NCBI GenBank assembly: GCA_900547945.1
Contig: URIT01000003.1
Coordinates: 1,406 to 65,405, forward strand
Source: an uncultured bacterium
GTDB lineage: Bacteria > Verrucomicrobiota > Kiritimatiellia > RFP12 > UBA1067
Length of the DNA stretch: 64,000 bases
Direction of reading: 5' to 3'
The number at the start of each line of letters is the position of its first letter. The stretch's first letter is position 1. Below the pieces are notes generated by a model. That model was not told the DNA's origin. It saw only the letters and a list, made by a program, of their open reading frames with translations, and made no database searches. Positions 25,969 to 59,624 of this stretch are shown here, one piece after another. Made by a program: the position numbers and the translations under genes.

Positions 25969-28800
25969 TCATCTGATCGTGGGCTGGCAACCTTCACAGT
26001 CAGACGCATAGGATCCACCGGCGACAACGCTATCGCGCGTGTCGTATCCTGCGCGAATCCATTCCGCCGAAAACTTCACGCGGTAGGCGAGCTTCCCTTT
26101 GCCTTTCCTGTAGTCGTAGAAGTCGGCGAACAGCACGGCATCGTCCCCCGTTCCGCTCACCTGAAGGACGGACGAACCCGTGACCGAACGCCCCTCGATC
26201 TTTCCACTCGACCGAATCGTCCCGTTCCTGTTCACCGTGAACATGAGCGACGGCTTGGAGGGCGGCGGTTTACATCCAGGGCACACAAGGAATCCAGATC
26301 CAGCGTGTACAGACTCCGTGAGCGCACCGAACGTGCCGATCCTCGCCAGCTTCTCCACGACATCCGTCACGCCCGCACGTGCCAATGCCTGTGCCGTCCC
26401 GCCAGAAACGTTCCACTCGGCATCTTTCGTCCCGACCTTGCCCGACAACCGCGCCCTCCCGTCATTTCCAGGAGACATGTCCAATACCAGCTCACACCAA
26501 TTGCCGCGTTGGTCGCGCAGGTCGATCTGGACAAAATCGTCCGTACAGGCACACGAATAGCCCGAGAGCGAAGAGGTCTTCCCCGCCGACACGACCTTGA
26601 CGCCGATCTTGCCGTTCGACGCAATCGACACGGATACCGTGCCACTCACGTCGCCGAGATCATCCGCATCATCCGCGATCAGGTCTTCGCAGGGCGGCAG
26701 GTCTCCGCCGATGAAACCACGATACGTTCCGACGCATGCGGACGGGAAAGGCGCCACCGCAACCGTGAACGTGGCCTTCTCGATCCTGCGTCCGTTCCTG
26801 GCCGTCAGCACCACCGTATAGACGCCCGCCTTCGTCGGCGTCCCCCACAATGCGGCAGAAGAAGATTCCCGGTCCAGGACCAACCTCAAGCCCGCCGGTA
26901 ACCCGCTTGCCGACACCGTCCAGCCTTCTGCGAAGGAGAACTCGAATGGCGGCCGGCAGCAATTTGAATAATCGCCGACAGTAAAGGGATAGGCCCCTTC
27001 ATATTCAAGGCCGTCGAACACCCAGCTCCGCAGATTCGGCACGACAACGCGCATGCTCTTCGTTGCCGTCGCACCGGAAAGGTTCTTCGCCGTCAGCGTG
27101 ACAACACTCGTGCCGGGTTTCAGCTTCGCCATGTCAGGAACGACAAGCGACAACCCCTGCAATTTCACGCCGGGCGGCAATCCCCTTGCCGTCACCTTCG
27201 GCTGGGTCATGCTTTCGACCTCCACCGTCCGTTCGTCATATCGGGCATCCGTGTCAATGCGCCATTCATCGTCCACGCGGATGCCGATCGCCGCATCCTC
27301 GTCCTTCGTAACGAATTTCGCATAGACCGGCTTCGAGGCCGCTGCCGAGAAAACAAAGGACGCATTTGCCGCACGATAGTCGCGGCCCCCCTGGAATGGT
27401 TCCGTGCAGGCCGCGTCCGCATACCACCCGGCAAAATAGCAGCCGCGCGCAGGCCTGGCCGAAAGCCTGACCGCCGTACCCGACTTCTTCACGCCGCCAC
27501 CCAATACCGTACCGCGTCCGAGAGACGCCCCACCGACGGCAACCACCTGATACCGGCTGTCGGCATCACGGACAATCACCGTCTTGACCGTCTTGCGGCG
27601 CGCCGCATCCGTAAAGGTGATCCTGTACTTCCCCGGCTTTGTGGGCGTCCCCGCAAACACCTCGCAGATCCCTTCGGGACAGGGCACCTTCGCCTTCCAC
27701 TTCAATCCCGGAGGAAGCCCGGAAACCGACCTAGCAAGCGAATGCCAATCCTCAACGGCCTCAAACGGCTCGCCGACCCGCAGCGCATCGAGCGCATCCA
27801 GATCAACATGCCGGGAAAGCCCGATGTCGTCATAGTCCCCTTCCGAAGCGTCGCCGACGATCCAGCGCACCGTCGCCGACTGCTGATAGCCGTTCGCGTT
27901 CTTCGCCGAGCACGTCGCATAATAGACGCCCCTCCGCGTCGGGCGCCCCGAGAACTCCCGCGTCTGGGCATTGTACTTGATTCCCGCCGGAAGCCCCGAA
28001 ACGGAAACCGTCACGGGCGATCCCGACGACACGATAAAGCAATCCTCAAGATCGCGTTCGACCTCGACGCCGACATCCGCCGTCAACTTCCCACCCTCGG
28101 AAATGAGAAGCCAGTCGTCCCCGGGCCCCATGCTTTCACGCCAGATGGCACGCATCACAACCGTTCTGTCAATTTCCGTCCCGTCAGGTGAAATCATCAG
28201 CCACTTCGGCACATACCGGCTCAGATCGATCCGGGTTCCAGTTGGGTAGACGTGTTGGCCATCCTCCTCGACGATCCCGCTGCTCACCGACCAGCCTCCG
28301 AACAGGTTCCCTGGCTTCCTGAAGGCGCACAGCGGCAACGTATAATACAGAGAGGTCCCTTCCTTGACCGAAAAAGACTTGCCCGGCATCGTCCCCATAC
28401 CGCCGCCGGCATCAAAGACGATTTTCACCGGGAGTTCAACGGAGATTCCGTACATGGGTTTTAAAGGCTCCCCAATACCAGGTACATCACCAAGGTCCAC
28501 CCCTTCCAACGGATTGTCCGAAGCGGCGCCGGCCGTCGCCGCCAACACCATCATCGCACAGCTCGCGGCAACCTTCAGCGCATGGAATTTCCCGACCGCC
28601 GCACACGTTTCGCCCCCATCGGCGAGTTGCCGGTCAATCCTAGAGGCCCCCTCTTCATCCCCCTGCAGATGGAGGCAGACCCCCAGCAGGACCTTCGCGC
28701 GCGTGCTTCCCGCGTCGGCCTTAAGGTACTCCCGCAGGGCGGCCTCCGCTTCACGCAGATCCCCTGCGCGCATCATTTCCTTAATCGTGTTCAGCTTCAT
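25969..28800 (-). CDS. Membrane-anchored surface protein: N-terminal TPR-like helix pair, TM segment, Listeria-Bacteroides-type repeats and He_PIG/Ig-like repeats
   Basis: 943 aa. The N-terminus MKLNTIKEMMRAGDLREAEAALREYLKADAGSTRAKVLLGVCL is TPR-like; the TM segment is LKVAASCAMMVLAATAGAA. SGLPAGIKY, SGLPPGLKW, RGLPPGVKL and SGLPAGLRL recur, together with GTPTKPGKY and GTPTKAGVY. FGGWSV and YFAGWY motifs are present. Confidence 0.75.
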   Translation of the reverse strand: MKLNTIKEMMRAGDLREAEAALREYLKADAGSTRAKVLLGVCLHLQGDEEGASRIDRQLADGGETCAAVGKFHALKVAASCAMMVLAATAGAASDNPLEGVDLGDVPGIGEPLKPMYGISVELPVKIVFDAGGGMGTMPGKSFSVKEGTSLYYTLPLCAFRKPGNLFGGWSVSSGIVEEDGQHVYPTGTRIDLSRYVPKWLMISPDGTEIDRTVVMRAIWRESMGPGDDWLLISEGGKLTADVGVEVERDLEDCFIVSSGSPVTVSVSGLPAGIKYNAQTREFSGRPTRRGVYYATCSAKNANGYQQSATVRWIVGDASEGDYDDIGLSRHVDLDALDALRVGEPFEAVEDWHSLARSVSGLPPGLKWKAKVPCPEGICEVFAGTPTKPGKYRITFTDAARRKTVKTVIVRDADSRYQVVAVGGASLGRGTVLGGGVKKSGTAVRLSARPARGCYFAGWYADAACTEPFQGGRDYRAANASFVFSAAASKPVYAKFVTKDEDAAIGIRVDDEWRIDTDARYDERTVEVESMTQPKVTARGLPPGVKLQGLSLVVPDMAKLKPGTSVVTLTAKNLSGATATKSMRVVVPNLRSWVFDGLEYEGAYPFTVGDYSNCCRPPFEFSFAEGWTVSASGLPAGLRLVLDRESSSAALWGTPTKAGVYTVVLTARNGRRIEKATFTVAVAPFPSACVGTYRGFIGGDLPPCEDLIADDADDLGDVSGTVSVSIASNGKIGVKVVSAGKTSSLSGYSCACTDDFVQIDLRDQRGNWCELVLDMSPGNDGRARLSGKVGTKDAEWNVSGGTAQALARAGVTDVVEKLARIGTFGALTESVHAGSGFLVCPGCKPPPSKPSLMFTVNRNGTIRSSGKIEGRSVTGSSVLQVSGTGDDAVLFADFYDYRKGKGKLAYRVKFSAEWIRAGYDTRDSVVAGGSYASDCEGCQPTIR

Positions 28801-29881
28801 TTTCCGTTTCCTCCGTACTGGTTGACAACATGTCGTTTAAAATCTTCTCGGTCTCCACACGCCGCACGCAGAACAAGTTCTCGCCCAGCGTTCCCGTCGT
28901 ACTCAGCGCCGCCGCGCTGCACCCCGCCTTGCATTGCCGTCCGAACGGGCATTTCGCACACATGCCGGACAGCGCATGTTCCTTTTGCCGGAACGCATGG
29001 AACGACTCCGGATCTCGCCAAATCGCCTTGAGCGGACGCACGCGAAGATTCGCCTCGATGAAGTCGCTCCCGAGCGAAAGACAGGGCAGGACGTCGCCGT
29101 TCGCCCGTATGCCGATGACGTGCCGACCGGCCGGACATCCCGTCCAGACCTGATGCAGGAAACGGAGTTTCGGCGTCAGGGGGAAATAGCCGAAATCGTC
29201 CATCGTCCCGATCTTCAGCCGCCCGTTCAGGTCGTAAAGGCAATGCGTCACGCGCTCGGCGTACCAGGCGAACTGATCGGGTGACAAGAGAAGCGAGTCG
29301 TCAAACCGTTCGCCTGCGCGATGCGCGACCTGGATCTGCCAGAGGATGGGCGTATCCTTGAAGGTCTCGGCAAAAAGATCGAAGTCACCGAGGTTCCGGG
29401 ACGTGAACGTCGTGATCGCCGTCACCTGTCGGTGTCCGTCCGCCACAAGATCGTCCAACAGCCTGCGGCACGTCGCATAGCCGTCCACGCCGCGCGTACG
29501 GCGATAGCTCTCCGGCGTCGCGCCGTCCAGGCTCACGCCGACGGCACGGGGGGCAAGCGCCTTGAACTGCGCGCGAACCGCCTCCGTCACCAGAAGGCCG
29601 TTCGTGATCAGCTGGAGCTCCATGTCGACCGCCTTGACGGAGGCGGCGACTTCGTACCAGTCGGGACGCAACAGGAATTCACCGCCCAGAAGCGTAACCG
29701 TCCGGCAGCCGAGCGCCGCGAGATCCCGAATCACCTGTCGGAGTTCGCCTAGGGACATTTCATCCGCACGGGCACGGCCCGACGCCGAGGCACAGTGCGG
29801 GCAACGCAGATTACAGCGGTTCGTCACTTCAACGACCGCCTGCCGCAGAGAATGCGCCATTTGTCTTCCATTTTTCTCCAT
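28781..29881 (-). CDS. Radical SAM / SPASM-domain maturase-like enzyme
   Basis: CNLRCPHC (CxxxCxxC) sits near the N-terminus, followed by LLGGEFLLRPD. The C-terminal SPASM-like cysteines read CPAGRH...NGDVLPC...CAKCPFGRQCKAGCSAA. ATG at 29881 (the track start at 29887 is GTG). The 3' end overlaps the next gene by 20 nt. Confidence 0.88.
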   Translation of the reverse strand: MEKNGRQMAHSLRQAVVEVTNRCNLRCPHCASASGRARADEMSLGELRQVIRDLAALGCRTVTLLGGEFLLRPDWYEVAASVKAVDMELQLITNGLLVTEAVRAQFKALAPRAVGVSLDGATPESYRRTRGVDGYATCRRLLDDLVADGHRQVTAITTFTSRNLGDFDLFAETFKDTPILWQIQVAHRAGERFDDSLLLSPDQFAWYAERVTHCLYDLNGRLKIGTMDDFGYFPLTPKLRFLHQVWTGCPAGRHVIGIRANGDVLPCLSLGSDFIEANLRVRPLKAIWRDPESFHAFRQKEHALSGMCAKCPFGRQCKAGCSAAALSTTGTLGENLFCVRRVETEKILNDMLSTSTEETENEAEHD

Positions 29882-29923: not shown

Positions 29924-31714
29924 TCAATTCAGGTCGCAGCCAAAACGCTTTGCTACGTCCAGCACAACCGCCCCATACTTCCCCGAACCCGGAACGAGGG
30001 AGAAGCCCACGCCCGCGCCACGCAGACGCTCGACGACCGGCACCAGGACCTGGTGTTCGTACCGCTCGATCGACCAGTCGTTCCGTTTCGCACACGCTGA
30101 AAGCGAGATCTTGAGATACTTCGGCCGCTCGCCGAGGACACGGTCCAATCGGGACAAGATCTGTTCGGGCGATCCCTTCTGCGGCTGGAAGAGGGAAACG
30201 TTCTGCACGAGGGGCTGCGCCAAATGCGGTTTCGGCAAAGACGGCGTCGGGACGCTCTCCACCTTAGTGCCAGTGGTCTCCGTAGGCGCCGTGCCGCGCG
30301 AAACGGCCACGACATGGCGTGGGGCAGGCGCCGTATTGCTCGACGCGGGCGCCACATGAGTCGAATGCGCCACGTTACTTGAACAGGATACAACACTACT
30401 CGGACTGGACCCCACATTTCCCGAAGCGGGAACAGGGCTCGTGGACAGAAGTGTTTCCACCGGGACCTTGCCCTCGGCAGGCCCTACGGCGGCAACCGTT
30501 TTCCACACAACCGGCAGACGAAGGTACGGTTTCAGGAGGATGACCGCCCCCGTTGCCACGATGAGCAGCAACAACCCCGCGCAAGCCACGCGCAACGTGT
30601 GGCGTCGACGTGGATCATCCGGGCATCCAGAGCCGCGTGCCGTTTTGCCCTTGTCCCCCTCAACCGGTGGCACGGCCTTCTCCACAGTCCGCGTCGCCGT
30701 TTCGGGCTGGGAGGACGCAAGGATTTCGTCAATCGCGGCAACGATTTTATCGCCGGAGGACACTCTTTTCTCAAGGCTCTTCTCGCACATCCTCGCCAAC
30801 AGCGAAACGACGCCATCCGGAACGTCCAGCTCTTGTTCCCGTTGTGCCGGGGGAGAACCGCCGCCGACTTCCCCTGGGACGTCCCGTTTCCCCTCGGCGC
30901 AGAACGTCCGGGTCTCCATTGTCGGCAGCGTGACCGCCGTCCGCCCCTCCTCCGCACATGCGCAGACTGGCTTGAACGTGCGGATGTCGGGAAGCGGACG
31001 GGGCGAAAGAAGGAAGGACGTCACTTCGACGATGTTCGTGGCGGGATAGGGGCGGCTGCCGGCCAGCATCTCGAAGAAGACGATGCCGAGGCTCCAGATG
31101 TCGGCCCGGGCATCGACCGACGATGCGTCCCGCACCTGTTCGGGGGACATGTAGGCGGGCGTGCCGAAGACCTGCGCGGGGAGGGTCTTGAGCATGTTTT
31201 CGGCATCGTCCTGGACGGCCTTGGCGATGCCGAAATCCACCAACTTGGCAACGCCATCCGAAGTGAACAGGATGTTCTCCGGCTTGATGTCGCGATGGAC
31301 CGAATGGCGCTTCTCGACCGCCGCCAGCGCCAGGGCGACCTGGCGTACGATTCCCAACGCCTCGCGCCAGGGGATCCGCCCCCGGCACCGCATGCGGTCC
31401 CGCAGCGTCCCGCCGCCAAGATACTCCATGACGATGTAGTAAAACCCCGACGTCCCTTCGCATCCCGCGTCGTAGACCTCGACGAGATGCGGGCTGTGCA
31501 GCCCGCAGACGAGCGCGGCCTCCTGGTTGAAACGGTCGACGAACTCGCGGTTTCGCTCGGCGATCGCCGGATCGAGGACCTTCAACGCGCGTTCGACGCG
31601 CAGCGTGGGATTCCGCACGAGGTAGACCACCCCCATCCCACCCTTGCTGAGGATGCGCGTGATGGTCCAGTTCCCGAACCGGTCCCCTTCCTTCGGCATG
31701 CGTGAAACGTCCAT
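29924..31714 (-). CDS. Membrane Ser/Thr protein kinase (Hanks type) with an extracytoplasmic C-terminal domain of unknown family
   Basis: GGMGVVYLV (P-loop), ALK, HRDIKPENILF, VDFGIA and GTPAYMSPEQ. The TM segment is LRVACAGLLLLIVATGAVILL, followed by about 240 aa with an S/P/T-rich linker. Confidence 0.93.
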   Translation of the reverse strand: MDVSRMPKEGDRFGNWTITRILSKGGMGVVYLVRNPTLRVERALKVLDPAIAERNREFVDRFNQEAALVCGLHSPHLVEVYDAGCEGTSGFYYIVMEYLGGGTLRDRMRCRGRIPWREALGIVRQVALALAAVEKRHSVHRDIKPENILFTSDGVAKLVDFGIAKAVQDDAENMLKTLPAQVFGTPAYMSPEQVRDASSVDARADIWSLGIVFFEMLAGSRPYPATNIVEVTSFLLSPRPLPDIRTFKPVCACAEEGRTAVTLPTMETRTFCAEGKRDVPGEVGGGSPPAQREQELDVPDGVVSLLARMCEKSLEKRVSSGDKIVAAIDEILASSQPETATRTVEKAVPPVEGDKGKTARGSGCPDDPRRRHTLRVACAGLLLLIVATGAVILLKPYLRLPVVWKTVAAVGPAEGKVPVETLLSTSPVPASGNVGSSPSSVVSCSSNVAHSTHVAPASSNTAPAPRHVVAVSRGTAPTETTGTKVESVPTPSLPKPHLAQPLVQNVSLFQPQKGSPEQILSRLDRVLGERPKYLKISLSACAKRNDWSIERYEHQVLVPVVERLRGAGVGFSLVPGSGKYGAVVLDVAKRFGCDLN

Positions 31715-31773
31715 GTGCCCCTTCCCCCCTTCACCACCCGAAAACGCCCTTGACGCGCGCCTTCAGAAGCTCC

Positions 31774-32835
31774 TTACAGTTCAATGCCCGCAATCCGGGC
31801 CTCCTCGACAAAAGACGGCGCCTCGCCCGCCTCAAACCCTCCGCAGACGGTTCCGTCGGGCGCGATGGACGCCGTCTTCCAGCGATGCAGCTCGCGCACG
31901 CGGTATTCCCCCCGTTCCAGGGGAAGGACCTCGGCGATGGACACGACCTTGCGCGAACCGTCCGAGAGACGCGCCGTGTGGACGACCGCGCCGATGGCAC
32001 TCGCCACCTGCGCGCGCAGGGCCGAGAGCGGGATGTCGATGCCGCTCAGCAGGGCGCACGTCTCGATGCGGCTCAGGGCGTCAAGGGGCGAATTCGCGTG
32101 GATCGTGCTCATTGAGCCCGCATGGCCGGTGTTGAGCGCCTGCAGCAGGTCGAGCGCTTCGCCGCCCCGGATTTCGCCGATCACGATGCGATCGGGGCGC
32201 AGGCGCAGGGCCGAGTGGATCAGGTCGCGGATCGTCACCTCGCCCTGCCCGTTCTTGTCCGCCTTGCGCGTCTCGAACGGCACGATGTGCCGCTGCTGGA
32301 GCTGGAGCTCGCTCGCGTCCTCGATCACGAGCACGCGCTCGTTGTCCGGGATGAAGGAGCTGAGCGCGTTCAGGACGGACGTCTTGCCCGAGCTCGTCGC
32401 GCCCGAGACGATCACATTCTTGTGCAGGAGGACGAGCGCGCGGATGAGCCTCCGCGCCCGTTCGTCCACGCTGCCGAACGCCTGCATCCTCTCGATGGTC
32501 AGCGTGTCCTTCTTGAACTTGCGGATGGCGATGACCGTGCCGAGGCGCGACAGGGGCGGAATGACGGCGTGGACGCGGCTGCCGTCCGGGAGGCGCGCGT
32601 CCAGGCGCGGGTGCATCTCGTCCAGGATGCGCCCGACGGACTTCGCGATGTTCGCCGCCGCCGCCTTGAGCGCGGGCTCGCTCACGAACCGCGCCGGCAC
32701 CTCCTCCAGTCGGCCCTTCCGCTCGACATAGACCCGTTCGGGCCCGTTGATCAGGATCTCGCTGACGTCGTCGTCCGCCAGATGCTCCGCCACCGGCTGC
32801 AGGAACAGCGTCAGGAATGAATTGTTGTCTTGCAT
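31774..32835 (-). CDS. CpaF/TadA/VirB11-family secretion ATPase, short form without an FHA domain
   Basis: 353 aa. VSEILINGPERVYVE, Walker A GATSSGKTS, Walker B LVIEDASEL, RLRPDRIVIGEIRGGEA and GHAGSMSTIHANS. Confidence 0.9.
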   Translation of the reverse strand: MQDNNSFLTLFLQPVAEHLADDDVSEILINGPERVYVERKGRLEEVPARFVSEPALKAAAANIAKSVGRILDEMHPRLDARLPDGSRVHAVIPPLSRLGTVIAIRKFKKDTLTIERMQAFGSVDERARRLIRALVLLHKNVIVSGATSSGKTSVLNALSSFIPDNERVLVIEDASELQLQQRHIVPFETRKADKNGQGEVTIRDLIHSALRLRPDRIVIGEIRGGEALDLLQALNTGHAGSMSTIHANSPLDALSRIETCALLSGIDIPLSALRAQVASAIGAVVHTARLSDGSRKVVSIAEVLPLERGEYRVRELHRWKTASIAPDGTVCGGFEAGEAPSFVEEARIAGIEL

Positions 32836-35294: not shown

Positions 35295-35301
35295 CGCGCG
35301 T

Positions 35302-38159: not shown

Positions 38160-38170
38160 GTTTTCATCTC

Positions 38171-47397: not shown

Positions 47398-47398
47398 A

Positions 47399-52397: not shown

Positions 52398-53735
52398 TCA
52401 GTCCCATCCCGCGACTTCCCGGATCAGGGCCGCACAGCGCCGCTGCGTCGCCGCATCGCCCGGGTTGCCGTCCAGTTCCGGCGCCAAAGCGGCAAACAGG
52501 CGGCGGAGCCGTTTCGTGTTGGGGTCGTGCAGGGATTCCTTCGACTCGGAACAGTCCCGCGCATAGTCGACGCCGGACTTGACCGCGAGAAGGACCTCCC
52601 GCGCCAGCGTTTCCGCAGTCCCCGAGGATACGGAGGTCGCCAATCCCCGCGCCGTCGCCTCTAAGCCGTCCGGGACGCCATGCCGGTCCAACCGACGGAC
52701 AACGCGCATGAACCGCCGGACCGTCTCGCCGTCGCACGACGCGGCGAGCTCCCCCGCCGCCGAGAGCACCGCCTTCTTCTCCACCCGTGCCGTGGAATGG
52801 ACAAACCAGGACGCCGTAGCCAGAAGCAGAACCGTCATCCCCGACAGCAGAACAACCGCCCCGGATCGCCGACGCGGGGATCGGACTTCCATACGGCGCG
52901 TCCGGTCTCCATGTTCTTCCCCCGTCTCACACACCTCCAGCGACGTCGGCAACGGATCGTCCTGAAGGGCCCGAAGTGGGGGCGGCAGGTCTCCGACGTC
53001 GATCAGCACGACCGTGATGTTGTCAAGGCCCCCGCCACGCTTCGCCGCCTCGACCATCTCATCGACGGCGTTCTCGGTCGAGTGGACTGACGACAGGATG
53101 TCGGTCAGGGCGGTATCCGGAACCATGCGGGAGAGGCCGTCGCTGCACAGGAAAATGCGATCCCCCGTCTGTACGTCGAACGCATTCCGCTCAAGGTCCA
53201 CGGTCTCCTGCGCGCCAACCGCCCTGACGATGACACCCCGCAGCTTCTTGTCGACTTCGCGTTCGTCCGCAACCCCCATCAACTCCGCAACCGAGTGGTC
53301 GCGCGTCACACGCAGGAGCGTGCCGTTCCGATAACGGTACAGACGGCTGTCTCCGGCATGAAGGGCGATGGCCGTATCGGGGGCCGTCGCGTCGAAGACA
53401 ACCCCGACAAACGTCGACCCGCACGCCTTGAGCCCATGTTCCGCAGTATGGCGGACGATGGATGCCGAAGCGCGGTTGAGCGCGGCGGAGATTCCCATCG
53501 ACAGGACGGCTGCGGAATGCCCGCAACCTGGAGCGGCGTGCAGTTGTCCGCAGAATTCCGACAGGGCGGCAACCGTCTCGGCGGAGGCAAACTCGCCGTC
53601 ATCGCCTCCGCCCATGCCATCGGCCACACAAAACACCCCCGCTTCGGGGAAGCCCCCGAAGGCATCCTCGTTGTTTCCCCTCACAAGGCCAAGATCGCTC
53701 CGGGCCGCATGATGGAGATGTTCAAAGGGATGCAT
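52398..53735 (-). CDS. Membrane-anchored PP2C-family Ser/Thr phosphatase
   Basis: RGNNEDAF, VADGMGGG, LCSDGL and GGLDNITVVLIDV. The TM segment is GAVVLLSGMTVLLLATASWFV, followed by a helical C-terminal domain of about 130 aa. Confidence 0.9.
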   Translation of the reverse strand: MHPFEHLHHAARSDLGLVRGNNEDAFGGFPEAGVFCVADGMGGGDDGEFASAETVAALSEFCGQLHAAPGCGHSAAVLSMGISAALNRASASIVRHTAEHGLKACGSTFVGVVFDATAPDTAIALHAGDSRLYRYRNGTLLRVTRDHSVAELMGVADEREVDKKLRGVIVRAVGAQETVDLERNAFDVQTGDRIFLCSDGLSRMVPDTALTDILSSVHSTENAVDEMVEAAKRGGGLDNITVVLIDVGDLPPPLRALQDDPLPTSLEVCETGEEHGDRTRRMEVRSPRRRSGAVVLLSGMTVLLLATASWFVHSTARVEKKAVLSAAGELAASCDGETVRRFMRVVRRLDRHGVPDGLEATARGLATSVSSGTAETLAREVLLAVKSGVDYARDCSESKESLHDPNTKRLRRLFAALAPELDGNPGDAATQRRCAALIREVAGWD

Positions 53736-53760: not shown

Positions 53761-55230
53761 TTATTTTTCCAAGACGGCACCGAGCCGACGCGGCAGATCG
53801 GCAAACGCCCGGGCAAGAAGCCGACGCCCGTACTGCGCCGTCAACCAGGACGGCGCGGCGCCCGTTTCGCGACCGAGCTCGATGTCCGAAAGCGCAACCG
53901 CCACGGGTGCGGCCAGAGCCCTCCCCTCCGCATCCGTGACGGCGAGCGCAAATGAAACGGTTCCACGATACACAAAGCCCCCATCGTCGGCAACGGCGCG
54001 CACGGAGAACGATGTGACGGTCGGCACAAGGCGACGTGTGCCTTCCCGTCCCGGCACGCAGGAGATCCCCGCCTCGGGAAGCACCGTTTCAAGACAGGCG
54101 TTGAAATCGTCCGCCAACCCCTTCGGCGGATTGGACAGGCGCAGTTCGACCGGCAGGAGAACGGTCCCCGCCGGCGCGGGCCTCAGAACCTTCGCCATCT
54201 CACCCCGGATGAGCGGCAGGAGCGTCCCCAGGCTCTCCGCCGTCACGCTCCCCGTGCGCGACGCCTCGATCTCCGCCGTCGAAGCGTCAAAGACCTTGAA
54301 CGTCATCACATACGTCCCGCCGATGCGGCCGACGGAGGCGGCAAGCAGCTTCGAGACCGTCGCGAGCTTGCCGACGCGCGCCTTTTCGCGGCAGGTCGGG
54401 TCGGTCAGGTAGGAAGACGTCGTGACGGCGACCTCCTCCATCTGACGCGCCACGTCCGCCCGGGAAATCACCCTGTACGCGCCGCCTTCCACCGCGCTCT
54501 CCAGATACCCCCACAGCATGACGGCCTCGTTCTCGGTCACGCCATCCCGGAAATCCGGGCGGAGAATGGCCAGCGCGGGACGCCCCACACCCACATCGGC
54601 GGAACGGACGGGCCGAATGCTGCCGCCAGTTGAATCGGATGTGGAAACCGAGGCCGTCGCAACCGTCTCCTCATCCCGTGGCTCGAAGGAGTCAACCAAC
54701 GCCTCTGCGGCTTCCTCAACCTCCGAAATCATGAGCGAATGGAAGATGTTGTTGTCGAACTGCGACGCGCTGATCGGACGCTGCTCGTCGCATGAGCCCG
54801 ATACGGACTTCGCCCACGCGATATCGCCCGTTACCCGGTTCCGAAGGGTTAGGATGACATCGAGCGTCCATTTCGTCGTCTTTGTCTCAACACCGTAGGT
54901 CGTGCCCTTGAACGTGTTTTCACGCGACCGCAGAAAGGAGATCACCGGTTCAAGCACATGCGTTGCCGATTTCTCGTCCTCGGTCACCACAAAGGGGTGT
55001 CCGGGCCGGGCAAGCCGGGCAACCAAATAGGACTTGCCCAACGCCACGGAACGGGCATCCGCGTCCTGCTGGCGCTTTTCCGGCAGGACGAAGGAATCGG
55101 CCGTCTTGAAGGCATGAACAGAGATCCGGGGACGGGATTTTCCCCCGTCTTTCGGTTGCGTGTCGCGTGCGCCCGCCACGCCCGCAACAACCAATACGAC
55201 CAAAAGCAATCCGTTGCGTATCCTGTTCAT
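53761..55230 (-). CDS. Secreted protein of unknown function (489 aa); central part resembles LpoB/CsgG/FlgO-type periplasmic modules
   Basis: Signal peptide MNRIRNGLLLVVLVVAGVAGA. The segment PALAILRPDFRDGVTENEAVMLWGYLESAV...KLLAASVGRIGGTYVMTFKVFDASTAEI has the pattern of that fold; the family call is weak. Confidence 0.7.
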   Translation of the reverse strand: MNRIRNGLLLVVLVVAGVAGARDTQPKDGGKSRPRISVHAFKTADSFVLPEKRQQDADARSVALGKSYLVARLARPGHPFVVTEDEKSATHVLEPVISFLRSRENTFKGTTYGVETKTTKWTLDVILTLRNRVTGDIAWAKSVSGSCDEQRPISASQFDNNIFHSLMISEVEEAAEALVDSFEPRDEETVATASVSTSDSTGGSIRPVRSADVGVGRPALAILRPDFRDGVTENEAVMLWGYLESAVEGGAYRVISRADVARQMEEVAVTTSSYLTDPTCREKARVGKLATVSKLLAASVGRIGGTYVMTFKVFDASTAEIEASRTGSVTAESLGTLLPLIRGEMAKVLRPAPAGTVLLPVELRLSNPPKGLADDFNACLETVLPEAGISCVPGREGTRRLVPTVTSFSVRAVADDGGFVYRGTVSFALAVTDAEGRALAAPVAVALSDIELGRETGAAPSWLTAQYGRRLLARAFADLPRRLGAVLEK

Positions 55231-55245: not shown

Positions 55246-55596
55246 CTACCGGTTGTTCGTCTTGATAGGCGTTCCCGTCACGCGCGTCGTCATGATCTGG
55301 ACCCAGAAGAGGTTGAGCATCTGGTAGTCGACGGCCATGCTGATCAGCCCGTCGGCACCCGCCGCCTTGTCAAGCGCGCTCCGAAGGGCACGACGCTGCG
55401 GAGATCCCGGCAATCCGACGCTGTAGCCGAGAACGAACAGCTGCGAGTCGGAACCCTCGACCTCGTCGCCGACAACGGTGTACTTGCCCTGTTCAACGGG
55501 AAGCGACGCATCCGAGAAGTTCTGCGGCACCGTCGAGCATCCGGTCACGACCGCCGCGACGACGGCCAGGGCGGCAAAGCCCATGAGTTTCTTCAT
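55246..55596 (-). CDS. Small lipoprotein (116 aa)
   Basis: Lipobox AVVTGC within MKKLMGFAALAVVAAVVTGCS. Confidence 0.75.
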   Translation of the reverse strand: MKKLMGFAALAVVAAVVTGCSTVPQNFSDASLPVEQGKYTVVGDEVEGSDSQLFVLGYSVGLPGSPQRRALRSALDKAAGADGLISMAVDYQMLNLFWVQIMTTRVTGTPIKTNNR

Positions 55597-55640: not shown

Positions 55641-56798
55641 TCAATACACCACGCGGAACGTGCAGTAGGCCAACGAGTCGCGCTGGTCGGTCTTGAAATC
55701 GTCAAAGCGGACATTGGCCTTCACGGCCTCGCCGCCGCTCTGCTGCACGCCGGCGCGCTTGTCCATTTCCTGCATCACGTATTCCTTGAGCGCGTCGGCG
55801 GCCTTCTCGGCGGGCTTCCCCATCAGACCGAAGTCCACGGCGCACGTCCCCGACTTGGTTGCGGCATCGTAGTTCAGCACCATCTCGGAGCGCGCAAACG
55901 CCGAGAACGACACATGCCACTCTCGTGTCTTCCCATTGTAGGAACTGGAGTCGTAGATGACGCGTACGCGCGTCGCCTCGACGCCCAGCTGGTTTTCCGC
56001 CCTCCGTTCAAGCTGCGCCCGCAGCCAATTCGCGGCCCGTCCTTCGTCCCAGTCGTTGCAGGACAGGACGCAGGTACCCTGGATCACGCCCGCCGCGTTC
56101 TTGGGACGACTGTCAAACTGGCGGAACGCCGGTTTCTTGATGGTTGCCGCATCCGGCGAGATGCCTTCCAGGCGCGCAATCAGCGTGCCGTCCTTCGACA
56201 GGTCCTTAAGAAACGCCGCCGCGACCTCCTGGATGCACGTGTACACGGAATCGGGAATCAGCTCGCCGCCGTCCCACGGCATCTCCGACTTGCCACGATA
56301 GACCTTCTCATGGCAGACCACGTCCTTGGCGACGTCCTTGATCGTGATGCGCATCGTCGCCTCGCTCTTGACCCGTCCGTCCTGCCGCGTCAGGATGATG
56401 CCGAGGATGTCGACGGAAACACGAATGGCCGGTTGTTGGTCGCCGACCAGAGGGTGGAAGTGTTCCGACACGGCCCGCGTGAACTGCCGGCGCACGAGCG
56501 CGGACACGGGAACGGATGCCACCAGTTCCGACGTTCCCCACAGCATGCGCTTGGTGATGAACACGTTCTCGACGTGATCCGAGATCACGAACTGCGCGGG
56601 GACCTCCTCGATGCGGCGCAATTCCGGGAACACGAAGGAGGAAAACTCGCCGGCGCGTTCCGGCTCCTTCAACTGGCGCCTGTTGTCGAACGAAAAGCTC
56701 GTCCCTTCCCAGGTAAAGCCCTCCGGCTTCACGCTTTCACAACCGCAGAACAGCGCCACCACGGACAGGCCCGCGAGGATCGGTGCGTTCATCTTCAT
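55641..56798 (-). CDS. Lipoprotein of unknown function (385 aa)
   Basis: Start MKMNAPILAGLSVVALFCGC (lipobox) at 56798. The 28 upstream codons of the ORF are not needed. Confidence 0.72.
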   Translation of the reverse strand: MKMNAPILAGLSVVALFCGCESVKPEGFTWEGTSFSFDNRRQLKEPERAGEFSSFVFPELRRIEEVPAQFVISDHVENVFITKRMLWGTSELVASVPVSALVRRQFTRAVSEHFHPLVGDQQPAIRVSVDILGIILTRQDGRVKSEATMRITIKDVAKDVVCHEKVYRGKSEMPWDGGELIPDSVYTCIQEVAAAFLKDLSKDGTLIARLEGISPDAATIKKPAFRQFDSRPKNAAGVIQGTCVLSCNDWDEGRAANWLRAQLERRAENQLGVEATRVRVIYDSSSYNGKTREWHVSFSAFARSEMVLNYDAATKSGTCAVDFGLMGKPAEKAADALKEYVMQEMDKRAGVQQSGGEAVKANVRFDDFKTDQRDSLAYCTFRVVY

Positions 56799-56817: not shown

Positions 56818-57435
56818 TCACCGTGCGTCATACTTGGGAACGACAACCGAATCGCTCCAGAAGACTGTTCCCGAGGCGGCATCGAGCATCTCCAGGTTCA
56901 GGAAATGGTGGTAGACCCTGCGGCGCCCATCATCGGTCCGCTCGCGCCGCAGTTCGCCGGTCAGGACAAAATCGGCCGAAGTGTACAATCCGATGCCCTG
57001 AAGGGCCGCAGCGTCCTCTCCGGCATTGGTTCCGGCGATCAGGGCGTCCGTCATCTGCCTGCGACGCATCGGATCGATCATCAGGAATTTCCCGGTCTTG
57101 CGGATGGCTGTGAGGAGGTCGCGGTACAGTTGGCCCGTCGCGGAGGAATCGGACCGTCCGTCCCCCGTATTGTTTTCAATCGGGCTGATTGAAATCGTCG
57201 GCAGCGAACGCCCCGCGTCGAGCGCGCGTTTCCGCGCCCTGTCGTAGTTCTGCGTGAACAGCGGGTCAGTCAGAAGCCGTTCGACGGATGCGACCACCGT
57301 TCGCCGCTTCTGTGCGTACTCCATCCGCGACGCCCTGCCGTAGACATCCTCCTCCGGGTCGAGATATCCTAACCTAGGACCGGTTGCGCATCCAGACAGG
57401 GCGGCAAGTACCGTGGCAAGCAAGACCTTCTTCAT
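56818..57435 (-). CDS. LpoB-like (COG3417-type) lipoprotein
   Basis: Lipobox MKKVLLATVLAALSGC. PTISISPIENNTGD followed by LTAIRKTGKFLMID is the LpoB-type pattern. The ATG overlaps the upstream stop as ATGA. Confidence 0.65.
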   Translation of the reverse strand: MKKVLLATVLAALSGCATGPRLGYLDPEEDVYGRASRMEYAQKRRTVVASVERLLTDPLFTQNYDRARKRALDAGRSLPTISISPIENNTGDGRSDSSATGQLYRDLLTAIRKTGKFLMIDPMRRRQMTDALIAGTNAGEDAAALQGIGLYTSADFVLTGELRRERTDDGRRRVYHHFLNLEMLDAASGTVFWSDSVVVPKYDAR

Positions 57436-58529
57436 TTGGAAACCTCCCTCCAGCTTCCATCAACCCGCTCAGCGGCCTTCCGAAGAATCTTCTCGGTCGA
57501 CACCACCCGTTCGTCACCCTGTTCCGGCCTCAGCCCCAGTTCAGGTGCCTGGCTGCCAGTTCCCCAATTCGATTTCGTGAGGACCTGGGGCATGCCCGCG
57601 ATGCGCGTGTGTGAACTCGCAAGGTACTTGGCATACCCCTTGGCGCGTTCGGTCCGGCAGAAGTCATCCGTCGCCCCGCTCTTCGCCGCACGGTCGAGAA
57701 GTTCGGCGAAATAGGCATCGTCCTTACGGCGGCGACGCCCTTCCTCGGTTGGCTGCAGGGAAATCATATAGGTCGAGTTCGCCATGAAGTTCGCCTGGAC
57801 CTTGTAAGGCAAGGCAAAGGGATAGGAAACGGTCAGATTGTGGATGCCCGGCGAAACAGGAACCTGAAGCGGCGCCTCGCCCACGGTTCCCGCCGTGCCG
57901 TAGGACACGCCGTCGATCGCGACATCGGCGCCGGCATAGTTGCAACCAAACGCCACCATGACCTTTTGCGCAGACGTCTTCCACTCGACCTTTGCGACCT
58001 GCGGCAGGAACTGCTGCGCCGCGCTCCTGCAGATCTGCGACATCAGCTGGGCATAGACGGCCCCTGCGTTCTGCGCGAATTCCGCCGTTGTGTACTTGCG
58101 CGACAACGCCGTCACCTCGATCCCCCCCGTTCCACCACCCGAGGGGACGCGCTTGGCCTGCAGGGTCATGGTGACGCTGAGCTGTTTCACCAGTGCGGGA
58201 GAGCCGATCGTGATTTCCGAAATGTCATCGATGGACGCCGTAATCAAGGCCCCCGCGCCCAGATGTTCGGCCAGGCGCGTGGCGGACGAAAGCGGCATCG
58301 TCTCGCCCTTCACGCCGCGATTGAGGTTTTCCCCCACCACGTCGTTTGGGTCGATGACCTCGAAGGTTTCACCGCTCAACGCGACGGAAAGGCGCGTCGC
58401 AAGGTTCGGCAGTTTGATGAGGCATTCCGCCCCCGTGTGGTTCTGCACGACAAGGAGGGCCTTCACCGGTTCGGCGCCGCCAGTCAGCATCGTAAGGACC
58501 GTCCCCAAGAGAATGAGTCGCTTCTTCAT
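57432..58529 (-). CDS. Secreted protein with an LpoB-like N-terminal module and a PEGA-like domain
   Basis: Signal peptide MKKRLILLGTVLTMLTGGA. KALLVVQNHTG...FEVID is followed by ADVAIDGVSYGTAG...VSPGIHNLTVSY (PEGA-like). Confidence 0.7.
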   Translation of the reverse strand: MKKRLILLGTVLTMLTGGAEPVKALLVVQNHTGAECLIKLPNLATRLSVALSGETFEVIDPNDVVGENLNRGVKGETMPLSSATRLAEHLGAGALITASIDDISEITIGSPALVKQLSVTMTLQAKRVPSGGGTGGIEVTALSRKYTTAEFAQNAGAVYAQLMSQICRSAAQQFLPQVAKVEWKTSAQKVMVAFGCNYAGADVAIDGVSYGTAGTVGEAPLQVPVSPGIHNLTVSYPFALPYKVQANFMANSTYMISLQPTEEGRRRRKDDAYFAELLDRAAKSGATDDFCRTERAKGYAKYLASSHTRIAGMPQVLTKSNWGTGSQAPELGLRPEQGDERVVSTEKILRKAAERVDGSWREVSK

Positions 58530-58544: not shown

Positions 58545-58937
58545 TTACGGATTCGACCGACGAACGGACAAACGGAAATCCTCAGTATCCTTCAGGGGCG
58601 AAACGGCCTCGAATACCGTTTCATCACGTCCGTGGATGACGACGGGACGCCACGGCATCATCGCATGGGTCTGCACAAGTCCCTGGGCGTTCTTCCATTC
58701 GAATCGGTACTGACAGCGGAAATCAGAGTTGTTCAGATTCCTGATCGTCGCCTGGACATGCAGAAACCCCTCCGGCGTCCTTTCACATGCGTCCCGTACG
58801 ATTTCAAGATTCAGGGCAAAGGAGGGATCATGGATCTCGACCCGGCCCTTTTCCACGGCGACGCCGCTGGTTCGGGACGAAAGACAGCCCCCCAGTAGGC
58901 AACATCCAAAAACACAGGCAAACGGCAGGACTTTCAT
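58545..58937 (-). CDS. YcfL-like (DUF1425) lipoprotein
   Basis: Lipobox CLLGGC. LHVQATIRNLNNSDFRCQYRFEWKNAQG matches the DUF1425 pattern; 130 aa. Confidence 0.65.
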   Translation of the reverse strand: MKVLPFACVFGCCLLGGCLSSRTSGVAVEKGRVEIHDPSFALNLEIVRDACERTPEGFLHVQATIRNLNNSDFRCQYRFEWKNAQGLVQTHAMMPWRPVVIHGRDETVFEAVSPLKDTEDFRLSVRRSNP

Positions 58938-58949
58938 GCGCGGCTTTCC

Positions 58950-59624
58950 TTAGAATGCAAAGTTGAACACAGGTAGGACGGGAACCGCCGAATCGCGGTT
59001 GATGTTGAATGCGCCAATCTGAAGCCCCTCAAGCCGGGTGGACATGTTGACGATCCCCACCTGTACGCCCGTCCCCCGCTCCGCCATGTTGAAACCGCCG
59101 ACCTGTAGGCCGTCAAGGCGGCCAGATCTGTTGACAAGCCCCGTCTGCAGACCGTTGAACAGTCCCTCCGTCCAGTTCCAGACAAACGAAATCTGGCAAC
59201 CGTTCATGTCCCGTCCGGAATGATTGCAGACACCTGCAAGATGGAAAGCCCCCGGCGAGGATCCCGTTCGATTGAAAATTCCGGAAATGCCAAGCCCCGT
59301 CATTTCATCATCCGAAATGCCGCCAATCACGCCCAAGTCAAAAATGGATACACGGCGATGGGCCCCGACAAGGAGATTCAACTGGAACAAGGCGACATCA
59401 AGGGTTCTGTCGGGGGTCTCAGCCGAAGGTATGAGCGAAAGGGCAAGCGGCTGCGCGCCGACAAAGGCAGACGACTCAAGTGGCTGTATTGGACGTACGA
59501 CAACGGGATTCTCCGCCGTCTTGTTCGCCCCCTCCGCAGCATATGTCCTGACCTGGACATTCTGCGCCTGAAGGCGAACGAGCGAAACCGCCACAATCGC
59601 CGCAACAAGTACATTCATTCGCAT
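58950..59624 (-). CDS. Secreted surface/outer-membrane repeat protein (G-x-Q-x-G-x-x-N repeats, C-terminal Phe)
   Basis: Start MRMNVLVAAIVAVSLVRLQA at 59624 after GGAAGGAGAAGG. Repeats: GLQTGLVNRSGRLDGLQVGGFNMAERGTGVQVGIVNMSTRLEGLQIGAFNI. The protein ends ...VFNFAF. Confidence 0.75.
   Translation of the reverse strand: MRMNVLVAAIVAVSLVRLQAQNVQVRTYAAEGANKTAENPVVVRPIQPLESSAFVGAQPLALSLIPSAETPDRTLDVALFQLNLLVGAHRRVSIFDLGVIGGISDDEMTGLGISGIFNRTGSSPGAFHLAGVCNHSGRDMNGCQISFVWNWTEGLFNGLQTGLVNRSGRLDGLQVGGFNMAERGTGVQVGIVNMSTRLEGLQIGAFNINRDSAVPVLPVFNFAF

Follow-up and report, generated by a model that had tools for sequence, protein, structure and literature searches.

Introduction

Tad pili, the type IVc pili, are positioned in the cell by TadZ/CpaE. 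The canonical Tad systems have been described as single-motor systems, and the minimum architecture of their motor CpaF consists of a three-helix bundle (3HB), an N-terminal domain (NTD) and the CAD, where the 3HB is predicted to contact the platform proteins (PMC12019362). A recognised 'class III' of CpaF carries an FHA domain and an intrinsically disordered region (IDR) in front of these parts, giving the order FHA-IDR-3HB-NTD-CAD, and is found in 'mostly betaproteobacteria' (PMC12019362). Here we analyze a stretch of 64,000 nucleotides (the window) from contig URIT01000003.1 of an uncultured Kiritimatiellia bacterium, in which a 34-kb block at 25969-59624 encodes a Tad-type (type IVc) pilus machine together with FHA proteins, a Ser/Thr kinase, a PP2C phosphatase and a second CpaF-like ATPase. 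We are very confident that this machine belongs to a lineage that is conserved across Kiritimatiellia and Lentisphaeria.

The H1 type VI secretion system (H1-T6SS) is an envelope nanomachine encoded together with a transmembrane Hanks kinase, a PP2C phosphatase and an FHA reader, and its assembly is triggered by contact or envelope cues. Its threonine-phosphorylation pathway in Pseudomonas aeruginosa (PpkA/PppA/Fha1) has been cited as a regulatory analogue by the authors who described Kil, a Tad-like system of Myxococcus xanthus that kills on contact (PMC8460266, PMC12075869). In Kil the motor KilF is an FHA-ATPase, the FHA proteins MXAN_4648 and MXAN_4649 (PrgH-like) precede KilH and KilG, and KilL, KilM and KilN are TadE/F/G-like tip proteins with many disulfides (PMC8460266, PMC12075869). 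Kil kills prey in a contact-dependent manner, is assembled where the cells touch and shows a dependence on T3SS*. The Kil clade, made up of Myxococcales, Bdellovibrionales and Bradymonadales, is reported to be confined to predatory delta-proteobacteria, and both the toxin and the trigger are still unknown (PMC8460266, PMC12075869). The literature that we searched contained no mention of Tad pili in Kiritimatiellia and nothing relevant on Victivallales with Flp or FHA.

Results

The array holds a complete Tad core and phospho-signalling genes

Genes were called by tiling of open reading frames (ORFs), with frame-specific GC content used to discard spurious ORFs, and protein families were assigned to all 30 products with Pfam and NCBIfam (Table 1). 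The block consists of 30 tightly packed genes, g01 to g30, all on the minus strand. Among the 29 junctions 9 are start/stop overlaps and 14 are gaps of at most 25 nt, the number of overlaps varying with the choice of start codon. An earlier reading of the letters (the original prediction) had placed the array at these coordinates, which stand, but had counted 31 genes and eleven overlaps. The complete Tad core that it announced was recovered with Pfam and NCBIfam for all components but the two Flp pilins, and the four FHA domains, the Hanks kinase, the PP2C phosphatase, the second CpaF-like ATPase, the LGT-like protein, the radical SAM (rSAM)/SPASM enzyme and the lipoprotein genes were all found again.

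The two Flp-type prepilins g15 and g14 carry the prepilin motif G/xxxxEY; Pfam Flp_Fap reached only E=0.56 and Flp1_like was far below threshold. The prepilin site G/xxxxE is present in five proteins of the array. Judged from sequence, g14 is a candidate for the major pilin and g11 for the tip protein. The motor g20 starts 46 codons downstream of the start of a 611-aa ORF and has the layout of a class III CpaF, with the FHA domain in residues 1-100, a Pro-rich linker and approximately 70 residues before the start of the alignment to the second ATPase (ATPase2), which presumably form the 3HB. In the secretin g21 the approximately 320 N-terminal residues match no secretin N-domain, pil_N or BON model; unlike g21, the secretins of two other FHA-CpaF loci (L203 and L179; L numbers denote the related loci described below) do carry PF13629.

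Two further FHA proteins are anchored by a transmembrane (TM) segment. The periplasmic domain of g17 has a weak SctD/YscD/PrgH-like match (NCBIfam type_III_yscD 9.2e-7, below the cutoff), and from their domain layout both g17 and g16 are candidate scaffold proteins. The GR and SxxH motifs are intact in three of the four FHA domains. In the kinase g03 the catalytic motifs (HRDIKPEN, DFG and SPE) are intact, and approximately 200 aa at the C-terminus form a periplasmic domain. All four metal-binding motifs (RGNNED, DGMGG, CSDG and DNIT) are likewise intact in the phosphatase g23, which has a TM segment at 294-312 and a match to NCBIfam Stp1_PP2C (1.8e-47) below the cutoff.

No ParA, CbiA or AAA_31-type match was obtained for the 30 proteins, in agreement with the original prediction, in which no ParA-like TadZ/CpaE was found, and the precomputed annotations of related contigs contained none either. 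Likewise, the window holds no recognisable TadD or RcpB and no TPR pilotin; other strains encode a 479-aa TPR lipoprotein within a segment that is deleted from the window.

The core order is conserved across Kiritimatiellia and Lentisphaeria

Approximately 160 related loci were compared. A scan of species-representative genomes with CpaF gave 241 relatives, the best 80 of which (59-77% identity) were used for gene order, and a scan with ATPase2 gave at least 498 relatives. Among the best 80 of the 241, the order CpaB, secretin, FHA-CpaF, TadB, TadC, FHA-TM, 2xFHA-TM, Flp, Flp, A24, TadE, TadG (g22 to g11) is kept wherever the contig allows. It is clear that the recurrence of this order in approximately 80 species-level genomes is far beyond chance. 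The carriers are Kiritimatiellia, Lentisphaeria/Victivallales and metagenome-assembled genomes (MAGs) labelled Verrucomicrobia, among them a MAG assigned to Victivallis vadensis with an orthologous locus (L030 and L112). A g17-type FHA-TM protein was found in 76 of 86 CpaF-anchored loci (six being same-species contigs) and a g16-type 2xFHA-TM protein in 66 of the 86. Taken together, the FHA fusion on CpaF and both FHA-TM proteins go with the core in nearly all of the approximately 80 related loci, which bears out the earlier claim of a Tad derivative whose phospho-signalling parts belong to the system.

A second module follows the core. The order TadG-g10-g09-TadE'-g07-(PP2C)-ATPase2-kinase, where TadE' is the second TadE-like protein g08, is repeated in L087, L093, L096, L098, L114, L124, L135 and L138, and g07-like tblastn matches lie in the same position in L087, L096, L098, L138 and L141. 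In other genomes (L079-L086, L051-L082) the second module is inverted or shifted upstream of the first. Its adjacency is retained through inversion and permutation, which is the pattern expected of functional linkage. ATPase2 and the CpaF locus share one contig in 12 cases, 14-25 kb apart in the 5 pairs measured, and at least 30 assemblies hold both ATPase2 and the core. In 20 of 55 loci a kinase gene is located downstream of ATPase2, at most 2.5 kb away, and PP2C, whose usual place in relatives is immediately upstream of ATPase2, occupies that place in 13 of 53; when 10 kb around ATPase2 is considered, kinase and PP2C are each present in 31 of 65 loci.

Collectively, these comparisons define a conserved system consisting of CpaB, secretin, FHA-CpaF, TadB, TadC, FHA-TM, 2xFHA-TM, two Flp, TadV, TadE, TadG, g10, g09, TadE', g07 and ATPase2.

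Some Victivallales hold two paralogous copies of the whole system (L016 and L083, assembly URKJ01), and in L115 two copies stand in tandem on one contig.

ATPase2 is a 3HB-less paralogue of CpaF

ATPase2 (g04) has intact Walker A, Asp/Glu and His boxes and carries neither FHA domain, IDR nor 3HB. Its best PDB match is CpaF of Caulobacter crescentus (1.3e-85), where residue 13 of ATPase2 aligns to residue 149 of the 501 in CpaF. The IDR of the C. crescentus protein ends at residue 79, and D116 lies within its 3HB (PMC12019362). Since the alignment begins only at residue 149, past the 3HB, ATPase2 must be devoid of this bundle. The protein is 44% identical to the core of g20 and is conserved at 68-90% across the loci of the Planctomycetes-Verrucomicrobia-Chlamydiae (PVC) group. 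A better conservation of ATPase2 than of CpaF (68-90% against 59-77%) was considered and rejected as an artefact of the variable FHA domain and linker of CpaF, whose shared core is conserved at 78-90%.

In a neighbour-joining tree based on 353 core columns, 65 sequences and 100 bootstraps, the ATPase2 clade is split from all CpaFs with 100% bootstrap, and the FHA-CpaFs of PVC bacteria form a clade of their own, also with 100%. The ATPase2 clade contains proteins from PVC bacteria and Omnitrophota and short ATPases from MAGs of Bdellovibrionales, Myxococcales and Planctomycetia. Outside PVC, a Myxococcota MAG (L194) and a delta-proteobacterial MAG (L203) have a gene of the ATPase2 clade 7-8 kb from an FHA-CpaF-TadB-TadC set, and L203 has in addition kinases and one FHA-TM protein. 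By tblastn there is no Tad homologue within 10 kb of the ATPase2-clade gene in L151, L152, L153, L154, L155 and L162 (MAGs of Bdellovibrionales, Myxococcales, Planctomycetia and Bacteriovoracaceae). The copy in L155 is a longer fusion with a C-terminal extension of approximately 270 aa.

ATPase2 resembles PilT, the retraction ATPase of type IVa pili, in its size of 353 aa, in having no assembly-motor N-terminal extensions and in being a paralogue encoded with the system. It differs from PilT in being of the CpaF/TadA type by sequence: the pilT_fam model TIGR01420 gave 56 bits against a cutoff of 319.1, and the best models were of the TadA/VirB11 type. By analogy, ATPase2 may be a second motor, possibly for retraction, a role in which we have low confidence.

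Directly upstream of ATPase2, L175 (13928-14872) and L176 (14234-15214) carry a Peptidase_C92 gene (a permuted papain-like amidase), in the slot that holds PP2C in other genomes and the LGT-like gene in the window. A ShlB-type transporter and a 985-aa protein come after ATPase2 in L175.

The minor-pilin cassette contains two secreted protein families

Between TadG and TadE' lie g10 and g09, both with Sec-type signal peptides. Genes of the g10 family always lie directly upstream of genes of the g09 family, the same slot being used in L175 and L176, and the stop codon of g10 overlaps the start of g09. The AlphaFold2 (AF2) model of g10 (pLDDT 89) consists of two alpha+beta halves and has no PDB match at E<=0.001; its weak cystatin/NTF2-like resemblances were not used as evidence. 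For g09, AF2 gave an all-alpha model (pLDDT 60) that is reasonable in residues 45-340 and likewise has no PDB match at E<=0.001.

The g09 family varies at its N-terminus. Twelve of the 35 homologues are short like the window copy, and the other 23 have an extension (head) of 190-460 residues before the conserved helical region. Six to seven heads are class-3-lipase-like with GHSLG (Pfam Lipase_3, Mbeg1-like, DUF6792; precomputed label PF26363 'Phospholipase-like'), five contain a different lipase-like domain with GHSYG, and eleven have no GxSxG; ten of these eleven were read, nine being helical of another kind and one (P0028) low-complexity and rich in N, T and G. The long forms sit in the same slot, between g10-like and TadE'-like genes (L175 and L176). 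The idea that g10 is a split-off N-terminal extension of the long g09 forms was rejected, the two showing no similarity.

In the unrelated FHA-CpaF locus of Acidithiobacillus ferrianus (L179:12566-13846) a 426-aa protein with a Pesticin-like lysozyme-toxin domain is encoded right after a TadE-like gene. This single case points the same way as the lipase-like heads, namely that the minor-pilin region of FHA-CpaF loci can house enzymes that degrade the envelope.

The pilin and tip genes are the strain-variable part of the machine

Identical array proteins occur on human-gut metagenome contigs according to an exact-protein look-up, and the genome that matches best, with a CpaF of 99% identity, is a Hadza stool MAG labelled 'uncultured Kiritimatiellaeota'. 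Eight same-species contigs with identical ATPase2 were compared with the window. Motors, platform and FHA proteins are 98-100% identical among the strains, and Flp70 (g15) is invariant (99-100%). The other pilin, Flp105 (g14), occurs as two alleles (79-82% against 98-100% identity), and TadG (g11) varies in length from 739 to 852 aa with 87-98% identity. In L167 (2494-8730) the whole cassette from TadE to g07 is replaced compared with 34105-41439 of the window, at 33-45% identity, and encodes a TadE of 185 aa and a TadG of 739 aa followed by proteins of 342, 443, 212 and 144 aa; because near-identical DNA is present on both sides, this is a cassette swap.

The window itself carries a deletion between ATPase2 and the kinase (Table 1). 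The missing segment, corresponding to L168:11067-13990, contains three lipoprotein genes (298 aa; 479 aa with TPR; 205 aa, LpoB-like), which are kept in all eight other contigs, and a 3' remnant of the LpoB-like gene is retained in the window. The genes g05 and g06 are missing together in L171 and L172, where g07 runs directly into ATPase2, and present in 6 others.

Compared with the more distant L007, pN/pS is below 1 in 17 of 17 comparable genes and at most 0.33 in 16 of them, showing that the genes are maintained by selection. The synonymous divergence is 0.005-0.04 in g12-g20 and 0.08-0.31 in g21-g28, and g29 and g30 have no nucleotide match; such a mosaic along the array points to recombination within it. 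It is clear from these data that recombination shuffles the outer parts of the array and that the predicted extracellular parts diversify.

Local add-on genes

The original prediction had treated all 31 genes as one system, and this part of it cannot be maintained: the rSAM and He_PIG genes (g02 and g01), the LGT and TM127 genes (g05 and g06) and most of the lipoprotein module g24-g30 are add-ons at the species or strain level. The rSAM, LGT and TM127 genes have no counterpart beside Tad genes in any related locus, and He_PIG had one weak match in 65. The lipoprotein module is common only to the two closest genomes, L007 and L010. Within it, g25-like genes come after ATPase2 in some other Kiritimatiellia, with tblastn matches of 30-33% identity beside ATPase2 in L118, L120, L123, L131 and L142, and g24 has matches upstream of CpaB in approximately 13 loci, several of them from Victivallales. 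The first gene g30 matches NCBIfam LA_2272_repeat (6.6e-19) and, below the cutoff, VC2662_fam (1.6e-11), and is 76% identical to its counterpart in L007.

The Lgt paralogue g05 falls below the cutoff of all four NCBIfam lgt equivalogs (e.g. 50.4 against 118.9). The rSAM enzyme g02 fits no named rSAM/SPASM maturase family, 25 of 25 listed NCBIfam equivalogs being below cutoff (best rad_SAM_trio, 137 bits against a cutoff of 592). A peptide-pattern scan for g02 was empty, but the view of g02 as an orphan gene was rejected, as a homology search gave 452 relatives with 50-83% identity in Kiritimatiellia, Phycisphaerae and Polyangiaceae. Three of their contexts were checked, with polysaccharide genes, with a gene for a Flg_new protein and one for a 1749-aa protein (L258), and with another rSAM gene, none of them beside Tad genes. 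The second of these contexts resembles the window, where g02 likewise has a Flg_new-repeat protein and a giant protein for neighbours. As the homologues of g02 have non-Tad contexts, g02 and g01 are probably a separate surface-protein module that abuts the array.

Borders and composition of the array

The original prediction described the array as co-directional. This is true of the block but not special to it, as nearly the whole 64-kb window is on the minus strand. Since all credible genes of the window are on that strand except one ORF of 83 aa, the limits of the array are set by composition and not by strand. The GC content of the window is high (0.58-0.73), and the GC content at third codon positions (GC3) is 0.63-0.91 in all 30 array genes compared to 0.93-0.98 in every flanking gene. 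The step in GC3 is sharp at both ends, and the lowest values are found in the most variable genes, g30, g29, g11, g12, g08 and g01. Horizontal acquisition and weak codon adaptation are both possible reasons for the low GC3. The flanks code for carbohydrate and housekeeping functions (GH106, an arabinose-isomerase-like protein, alpha-galactosidase, CarB and an ABC transporter).

The gap of 530 bp upstream of g30 contains a promoter-like site, a terminator-like hairpin and the divergent 83-aa ORF. Overall, the promoter and terminator scans gave counts no higher than in shuffled sequence. The 83-aa ORF, also called as a gene in L004-L006, shows weak ribbon-helix-helix likeness, with Pfam NikA-like (5.5e-4), RelB (3.2e-3) and RHH_1 (8.6e-3) all below the cutoff and CopG likewise below threshold. 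Scans of the window with Rfam at gathering thresholds and for tRNA gave no match, so that the borders of the island are devoid of tRNA and riboswitch. Downstream of the array, a gene for a 1512-aa protein (21427-25965, minus strand) begins 3 nt past g01. It has a host-like GC3 of 0.94, 42 Cys residues, no family match and a length of 1434-1471 aa among strains, and a relative with 31% identity sits downstream of ATPase2 and the kinase in L102.

Table 1 Genes and other features of the array in the 64,000-nucleotide window.
Feature	Position	Strand	Description and family match
g30	58950..59624	-	First array gene; secreted, LA_2272-type repeats, VC2662-family-like; strain-variable
g29	58545..58937	-	DUF1425 (YcfL-like) lipoprotein; Pfam 2.1e-14; lipobox LGGC
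g28	57432..58529	-	Secreted PEGA-domain protein; Pfam PEGA 1.6e-4
g27	56818..57435	-	LpoB-like lipoprotein; Pfam LpoB 8.9e-15; lipobox LSGC
g26	55641..56798	-	Probable lipoprotein, 385 aa; no Pfam/NCBIfam match; also called as 385 aa in metagenome contigs
g25	55246..55596	-	Lipoprotein, 116 aa; lipobox VTGC
g24	53761..55230	-	Secreted, 489 aa; no Pfam/NCBIfam match
g23	52398..53735	-	Membrane-anchored PP2C Ser/Thr phosphatase; Pfam PP2C_2 7.3e-11
g22	51602..52366	-	CpaB/RcpC; Pfam SAF and RcpC; NCBIfam pilus_cpaB 72.1 bits (cutoff 71)
g21	49993..51588	-	Secretin; Pfam Secretin 2.8e-9, residues 339-482 only
g20	48285..49982	-	FHA-CpaF motor ATPase; Pfam FHA 4.3e-15, T2SSE 1.3e-65
g19	47399..48271	-	TadB-type platform protein; Pfam T2SSF 4.8e-15
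g18	46501..47397	-	TadC-type platform protein; Pfam T2SSF 1.7e-15; adjoins g19
g17	45017..46501	-	FHA-TM-periplasmic domain; Pfam FHA 2.3e-9, Yop-YscD_cpl; TM 168-186
g16	42577..45015	-	2xFHA-TM-helical periplasmic part of ~550 aa; Pfam FHA x2 1.6e-28; TM ~214-232
g15	42368..42580	-	Flp-type prepilin, 70 aa (Flp70); motif G/SVLMEY
g14	41998..42315	-	Flp-type prepilin, 105 aa (Flp105); motif G/AVMMEY
g13	41436..41978	-	TadV/CpaA-type prepilin peptidase, 180 aa; Pfam Peptidase_A24 1e-14
g12	40690..41439	-	TadE-like minor pilin; Pfam TadE 5.5e-9; motif G/TVLTE
g11	38171..40693	-	TadG-like large minor pilin; Pfam Tad PF13400 2.9e-5; 27 Cys; hypervariable
g10	37092..38159	-	Secreted, 355 aa; 73 homologues, no Pfam domain
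g09	35302..37092	-	Secreted, all-helical, 596 aa, short (headless) form; 35 homologues
g08	34557..35294	-	Second TadE-like minor pilin (TadE'); Pfam TadE 3.5e-4, below cutoff; motif G/SVLMEF
g07	34105..34560	-	N-terminally anchored, 151 aa; TM 12-30; end of minor-pilin cassette
g06	33628..34011	-	Three-TM protein, 127 aa (TM127); strain-level accessory
g05	32811..33599	-	Divergent Lgt paralogue; Pfam LGT 3.8e-31 (108.7 bits); strain-level accessory
g04 (ATPase2)	31774..32835	-	CpaF paralogue, 353 aa; NTD and ATPase domain only
Deletion scar	31715..31775	-	Clean 2,924-bp loss between ATPase2 and kinase (blastn vs L167-L173); AAGGAG microhomology
g03	29924..31714	-	Hanks-type transmembrane Ser/Thr kinase; Pfam Pkinase 1.5e-42; TM 376-394
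g02	28781..29881	-	Radical SAM/SPASM enzyme; Pfam Radical_SAM 1.9e-21, SPASM 2.9e-10
g01	25969..28800	-	Surface-type protein, 943 aa; Pfam He_PIG 1.9e-20, Flg_new_2 8.6e-6, Ig-like repeats; 20-nt overlap with g02
Promoter-like site	59761-59790	-	TTGCAA-18-TACAAT with TG; consensus scan alone
Second promoter-like site	42362-42335		Directly upstream of g14
Terminator-like hairpin	59915-59890		Behind preceding gene, upstream of g30
83-aa ORF	59828-60079	+	Sole plus-strand gene seen in window; divergent from array; candidate regulator

Discussion

Relation to described systems

The closest described relative in design is Kil, and the original prediction was correct in naming Kil as a Tad-like system associated with FHA proteins. 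An N-terminal FHA domain is fused to the motor ATPase in both systems, and in both the platform genes have genes for FHA proteins next to them, including a PrgH/SctD-like one (MXAN_4648/4649-KilH-KilG compared to g16/g17-g18-g19), a correspondence that is one of domain architecture and position. Neither the array nor the published Kil table lists a TadZ/CpaE, and CpaB and a prepilin peptidase are found in both. Further likenesses are a variable 'tip' set of TadE-like genes and a large Cys-rich TadG/KilN-like protein, lipoprotein genes, many genes of unknown function and a secretin with an atypical N-terminus. The differences are that the Kil genes form two clusters with a single ATPase and neither kinase nor PP2C in them, whereas the present system is one array with ATPase2, kinase and PP2C, and that its hosts are strictly anaerobic PVC bacteria of gut, rumen and sediment with no known predation. 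A locus of Citreicoccus inhibens has the layout of Kil cluster 1 (FHA protein, A24 peptidase, secretin region and KilF-like gene), and the core of its KilF-like protein shares 58% identity with g20, a value within the 55-63% of other CpaFs. In the distance tree, which covers the ATPase only, PVC CpaF and the KilF-like proteins of Citreicoccus and Archangium formed an exclusive group in 0 of 100 bootstraps. Thus, the system has a Kil-like architecture, yet it is not a demonstrated member of the Kil clade. For the g09 and g10 families, tblastn gave no match in the one locus resembling Kil cluster 1 that was searched (L196); the minor-pilin genes of Kil are in cluster 2.

The canonical Tad systems, tad of Aggregatibacter and cpa of Caulobacter, share with the array the Flp motif G/xxxxEY, TadV/CpaA, TadB/C (CpaG/H), TadA/CpaF, RcpA/CpaC, RcpC/CpaB and the TadE/F/G-type minor pilins. 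The array differs in having no TadZ/CpaE, no recognisable TadD/RcpB and a CpaF of class III instead of class I or II, and in its extra FHA-TM proteins, kinase, PP2C and second, 3HB-less ATPase. Class III FHA-CpaF loci were also found in Burkholderiales, Acidithiobacillus, Chromatiales, Spirochaetaceae, Myxococcota and Planctomycetota. They have the same motor architecture as g20, but by tblastn no g16/g17-type FHA-TM pair, no g10/g09 and usually no ATPase2, L194 and L203 being the exceptions. The original statement that described Tad-type systems lack the modules of this array is therefore too strong, given that FHA-CpaF is a recognised class (PMC12019362) and that Kil carries FHA proteins. 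As in the H1-T6SS, a Hanks kinase, a PP2C and FHA readers are encoded beside an envelope machine. In contrast to that system there are no T6SS genes, and the motor and the TM scaffold proteins carry the FHA domains themselves, in place of a soluble Fha1.

A model of the system and the points against it

The reading that we favour, and consider rather probable, is that of a Tad pilus gated by phospho-threonine, with a diversifying tip and a second motor. In this model the kinase would sense a periplasmic or envelope cue by its C-terminal domain and phosphorylate threonines on itself or on components of the machine. The FHA domains of g16, g17 and CpaF would read these marks, by which the CpaF hexamer would be recruited to and held on the TadB/C platform, and this FHA-based recruitment would take over the positioning role that TadZ/CpaE has in canonical Tad. 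PP2C would reset the switch. CpaF would polymerise Flp, whose major subunit is likely to be g14, so that the filament would grow under a tip complex of TadE and TadG and leave by way of the secretin. ATPase2, devoid of the platform-gating 3HB, would be a second motor that uses this platform too, its most plausible task being retraction or disassembly. What results would be a pilus for contact or adhesion with a tip that differs from strain to strain; a lipase-headed protein of the g09 family would be part of the tip cassette in many relatives, the window having the headless form. In the phospho-gating itself we are moderately confident.

Several observations weigh against this model. The system is known here from sequence and synteny alone, and the phospho-acceptor threonines are postulated. 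The second FHA domain of g16 is devoid of the conserved Arg, and the FHA domain of g20 has SRGG instead of the usual SRNG. As kinase and PP2C are absent within 10 kb of ATPase2 in approximately half of the loci, phospho-gating by a dedicated pair may not be universal. The Flp identity of g14 and g15 comes from the prepilin motif and not from a family model. With regard to the second motor, the retraction role is argued from the PilT analogy alone, ATPase2 being below cutoff as a PilT; some members of its clade look like orphans, the ATPase2-like gene of L203 is 7 kb away from the Tad genes and has a response regulator gene and a TPR gene as neighbours, and the window strain has lost the three lipoprotein genes beside ATPase2.

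Alternative explanations

The same cassette could instead belong to a contact-dependent attack machine of the Kil kind, in which proteins of the g09 family are membrane- or wall-degrading effectors delivered at the tip or through the secretin to a competitor, prey or host. Kil shares the FHA-ATPase and the FHA proteins by the platform genes and kills on contact, and the slot between TadG and TadE' holds a family where 23 of 35 members have heads, 11-12 of them with lipase nucleophile elbows, which are interchangeable as in polymorphic toxins. The always adjacent, secreted and translationally coupled g10 is placed like an immunity or chaperone partner, and the lysozyme beside TadE in the Acidithiobacillus locus would fit as well. 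However, g09 of the window has no enzymatic head, g10 is retained even where the lipase head is missing, which argues against a simple immunity role, and the fold searches linked neither protein to a toxin or an immunity protein. A lipase could just as well have a function in nutrition or adhesion. Moreover, CpaF does not group with the KilF-like proteins, and the literature searched contains no record of predation or antagonism by these anaerobes. We regard an attack machine as unlikely.

The signal peptides of g09 and g10 and their location inside the minor-pilin cassette, together with two pilin-like Flp and several pseudopilin-like genes, would also be compatible with a secretion system, where a short Tad pseudopilus works as a piston, as in type II secretion, and pushes g09, g10 and further periplasmic proteins out through the secretin, with the two ATPases driving extension and reset. 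The same possibility has been raised for Kil by its authors (PMC8460266, PMC12075869). Nothing separates this explanation from a true pilus, but the allelic diversification of Flp105 and TadG fits a surface filament better than a periplasmic pseudopilus, and the Tad systems characterised in the literature consulted are described as pili (PMC12019362). It appears distinctly improbable to us.

Even less credit can be given to the block being a mosaic assembled by chance, with only a minimal Tad core as a functional unit and the FHA proteins, kinase, PP2C and ATPase2 working elsewhere. This description holds for the rSAM/He_PIG and LGT/TM127 genes and the lipoprotein module, and the synonymous divergence is patchy, indicating recombination, in a block that is a compositional island. 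For the 19-20 core genes it is refuted by the conserved synteny: the FHA-TM pair, the FHA-CpaF fusion, ATPase2 and the g10/g09/g07 cassette are linked to the core across class-level divergence and rearrangements, and all compared genes are under purifying selection. A DNA-uptake (competence) pilus of Tad type is equally hard to believe, for although natural transformation is one of the roles in which the literature implicates Tad systems, no ComEA, ComEC or DprA-type domain was found in the 30 proteins or the scanned flanks.

Implications

Going beyond the phospho-gated pilus that we favour, one may speculate about a two-motor Tad in Kiritimatiellia, Lentisphaeria and a few Myxococcota and delta-proteobacterial MAGs, where an ancient 3HB-less CpaF paralogue would be a dedicated motor for retraction or reset, switched by kinase and PP2C via FHA, and where the pilus would present or deliver the lipase-type heads of g09 to other cells. 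We consider this doubtful as a whole. If true, abundant gut anaerobes that are not predators would possess a contact weapon or contact enzyme of the Kil type. There would then be a counter-example to the single bifunctional motor reported for C. crescentus CpaF, so far the only Tad motor to have been studied, and Kil-like systems would gain a candidate class of effectors.

The locus represents a conserved sister design to Kil from another superphylum, and one that is common in metagenomes of the human gut and the rumen. It lays out what is likely to be the trigger hardware, in the form of kinase, PP2C and FHA readers, as well as a second minimal motor and a tip-cassette slot with swappable lipase-like heads in relatives. 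Cultured strains exist for Victivallis vadensis, to which one of the carrier MAGs is assigned. The questions raised by the locus are those of a dedicated second Tad motor, of phospho-threonine gating of pilus assembly and of the cargo of such systems.

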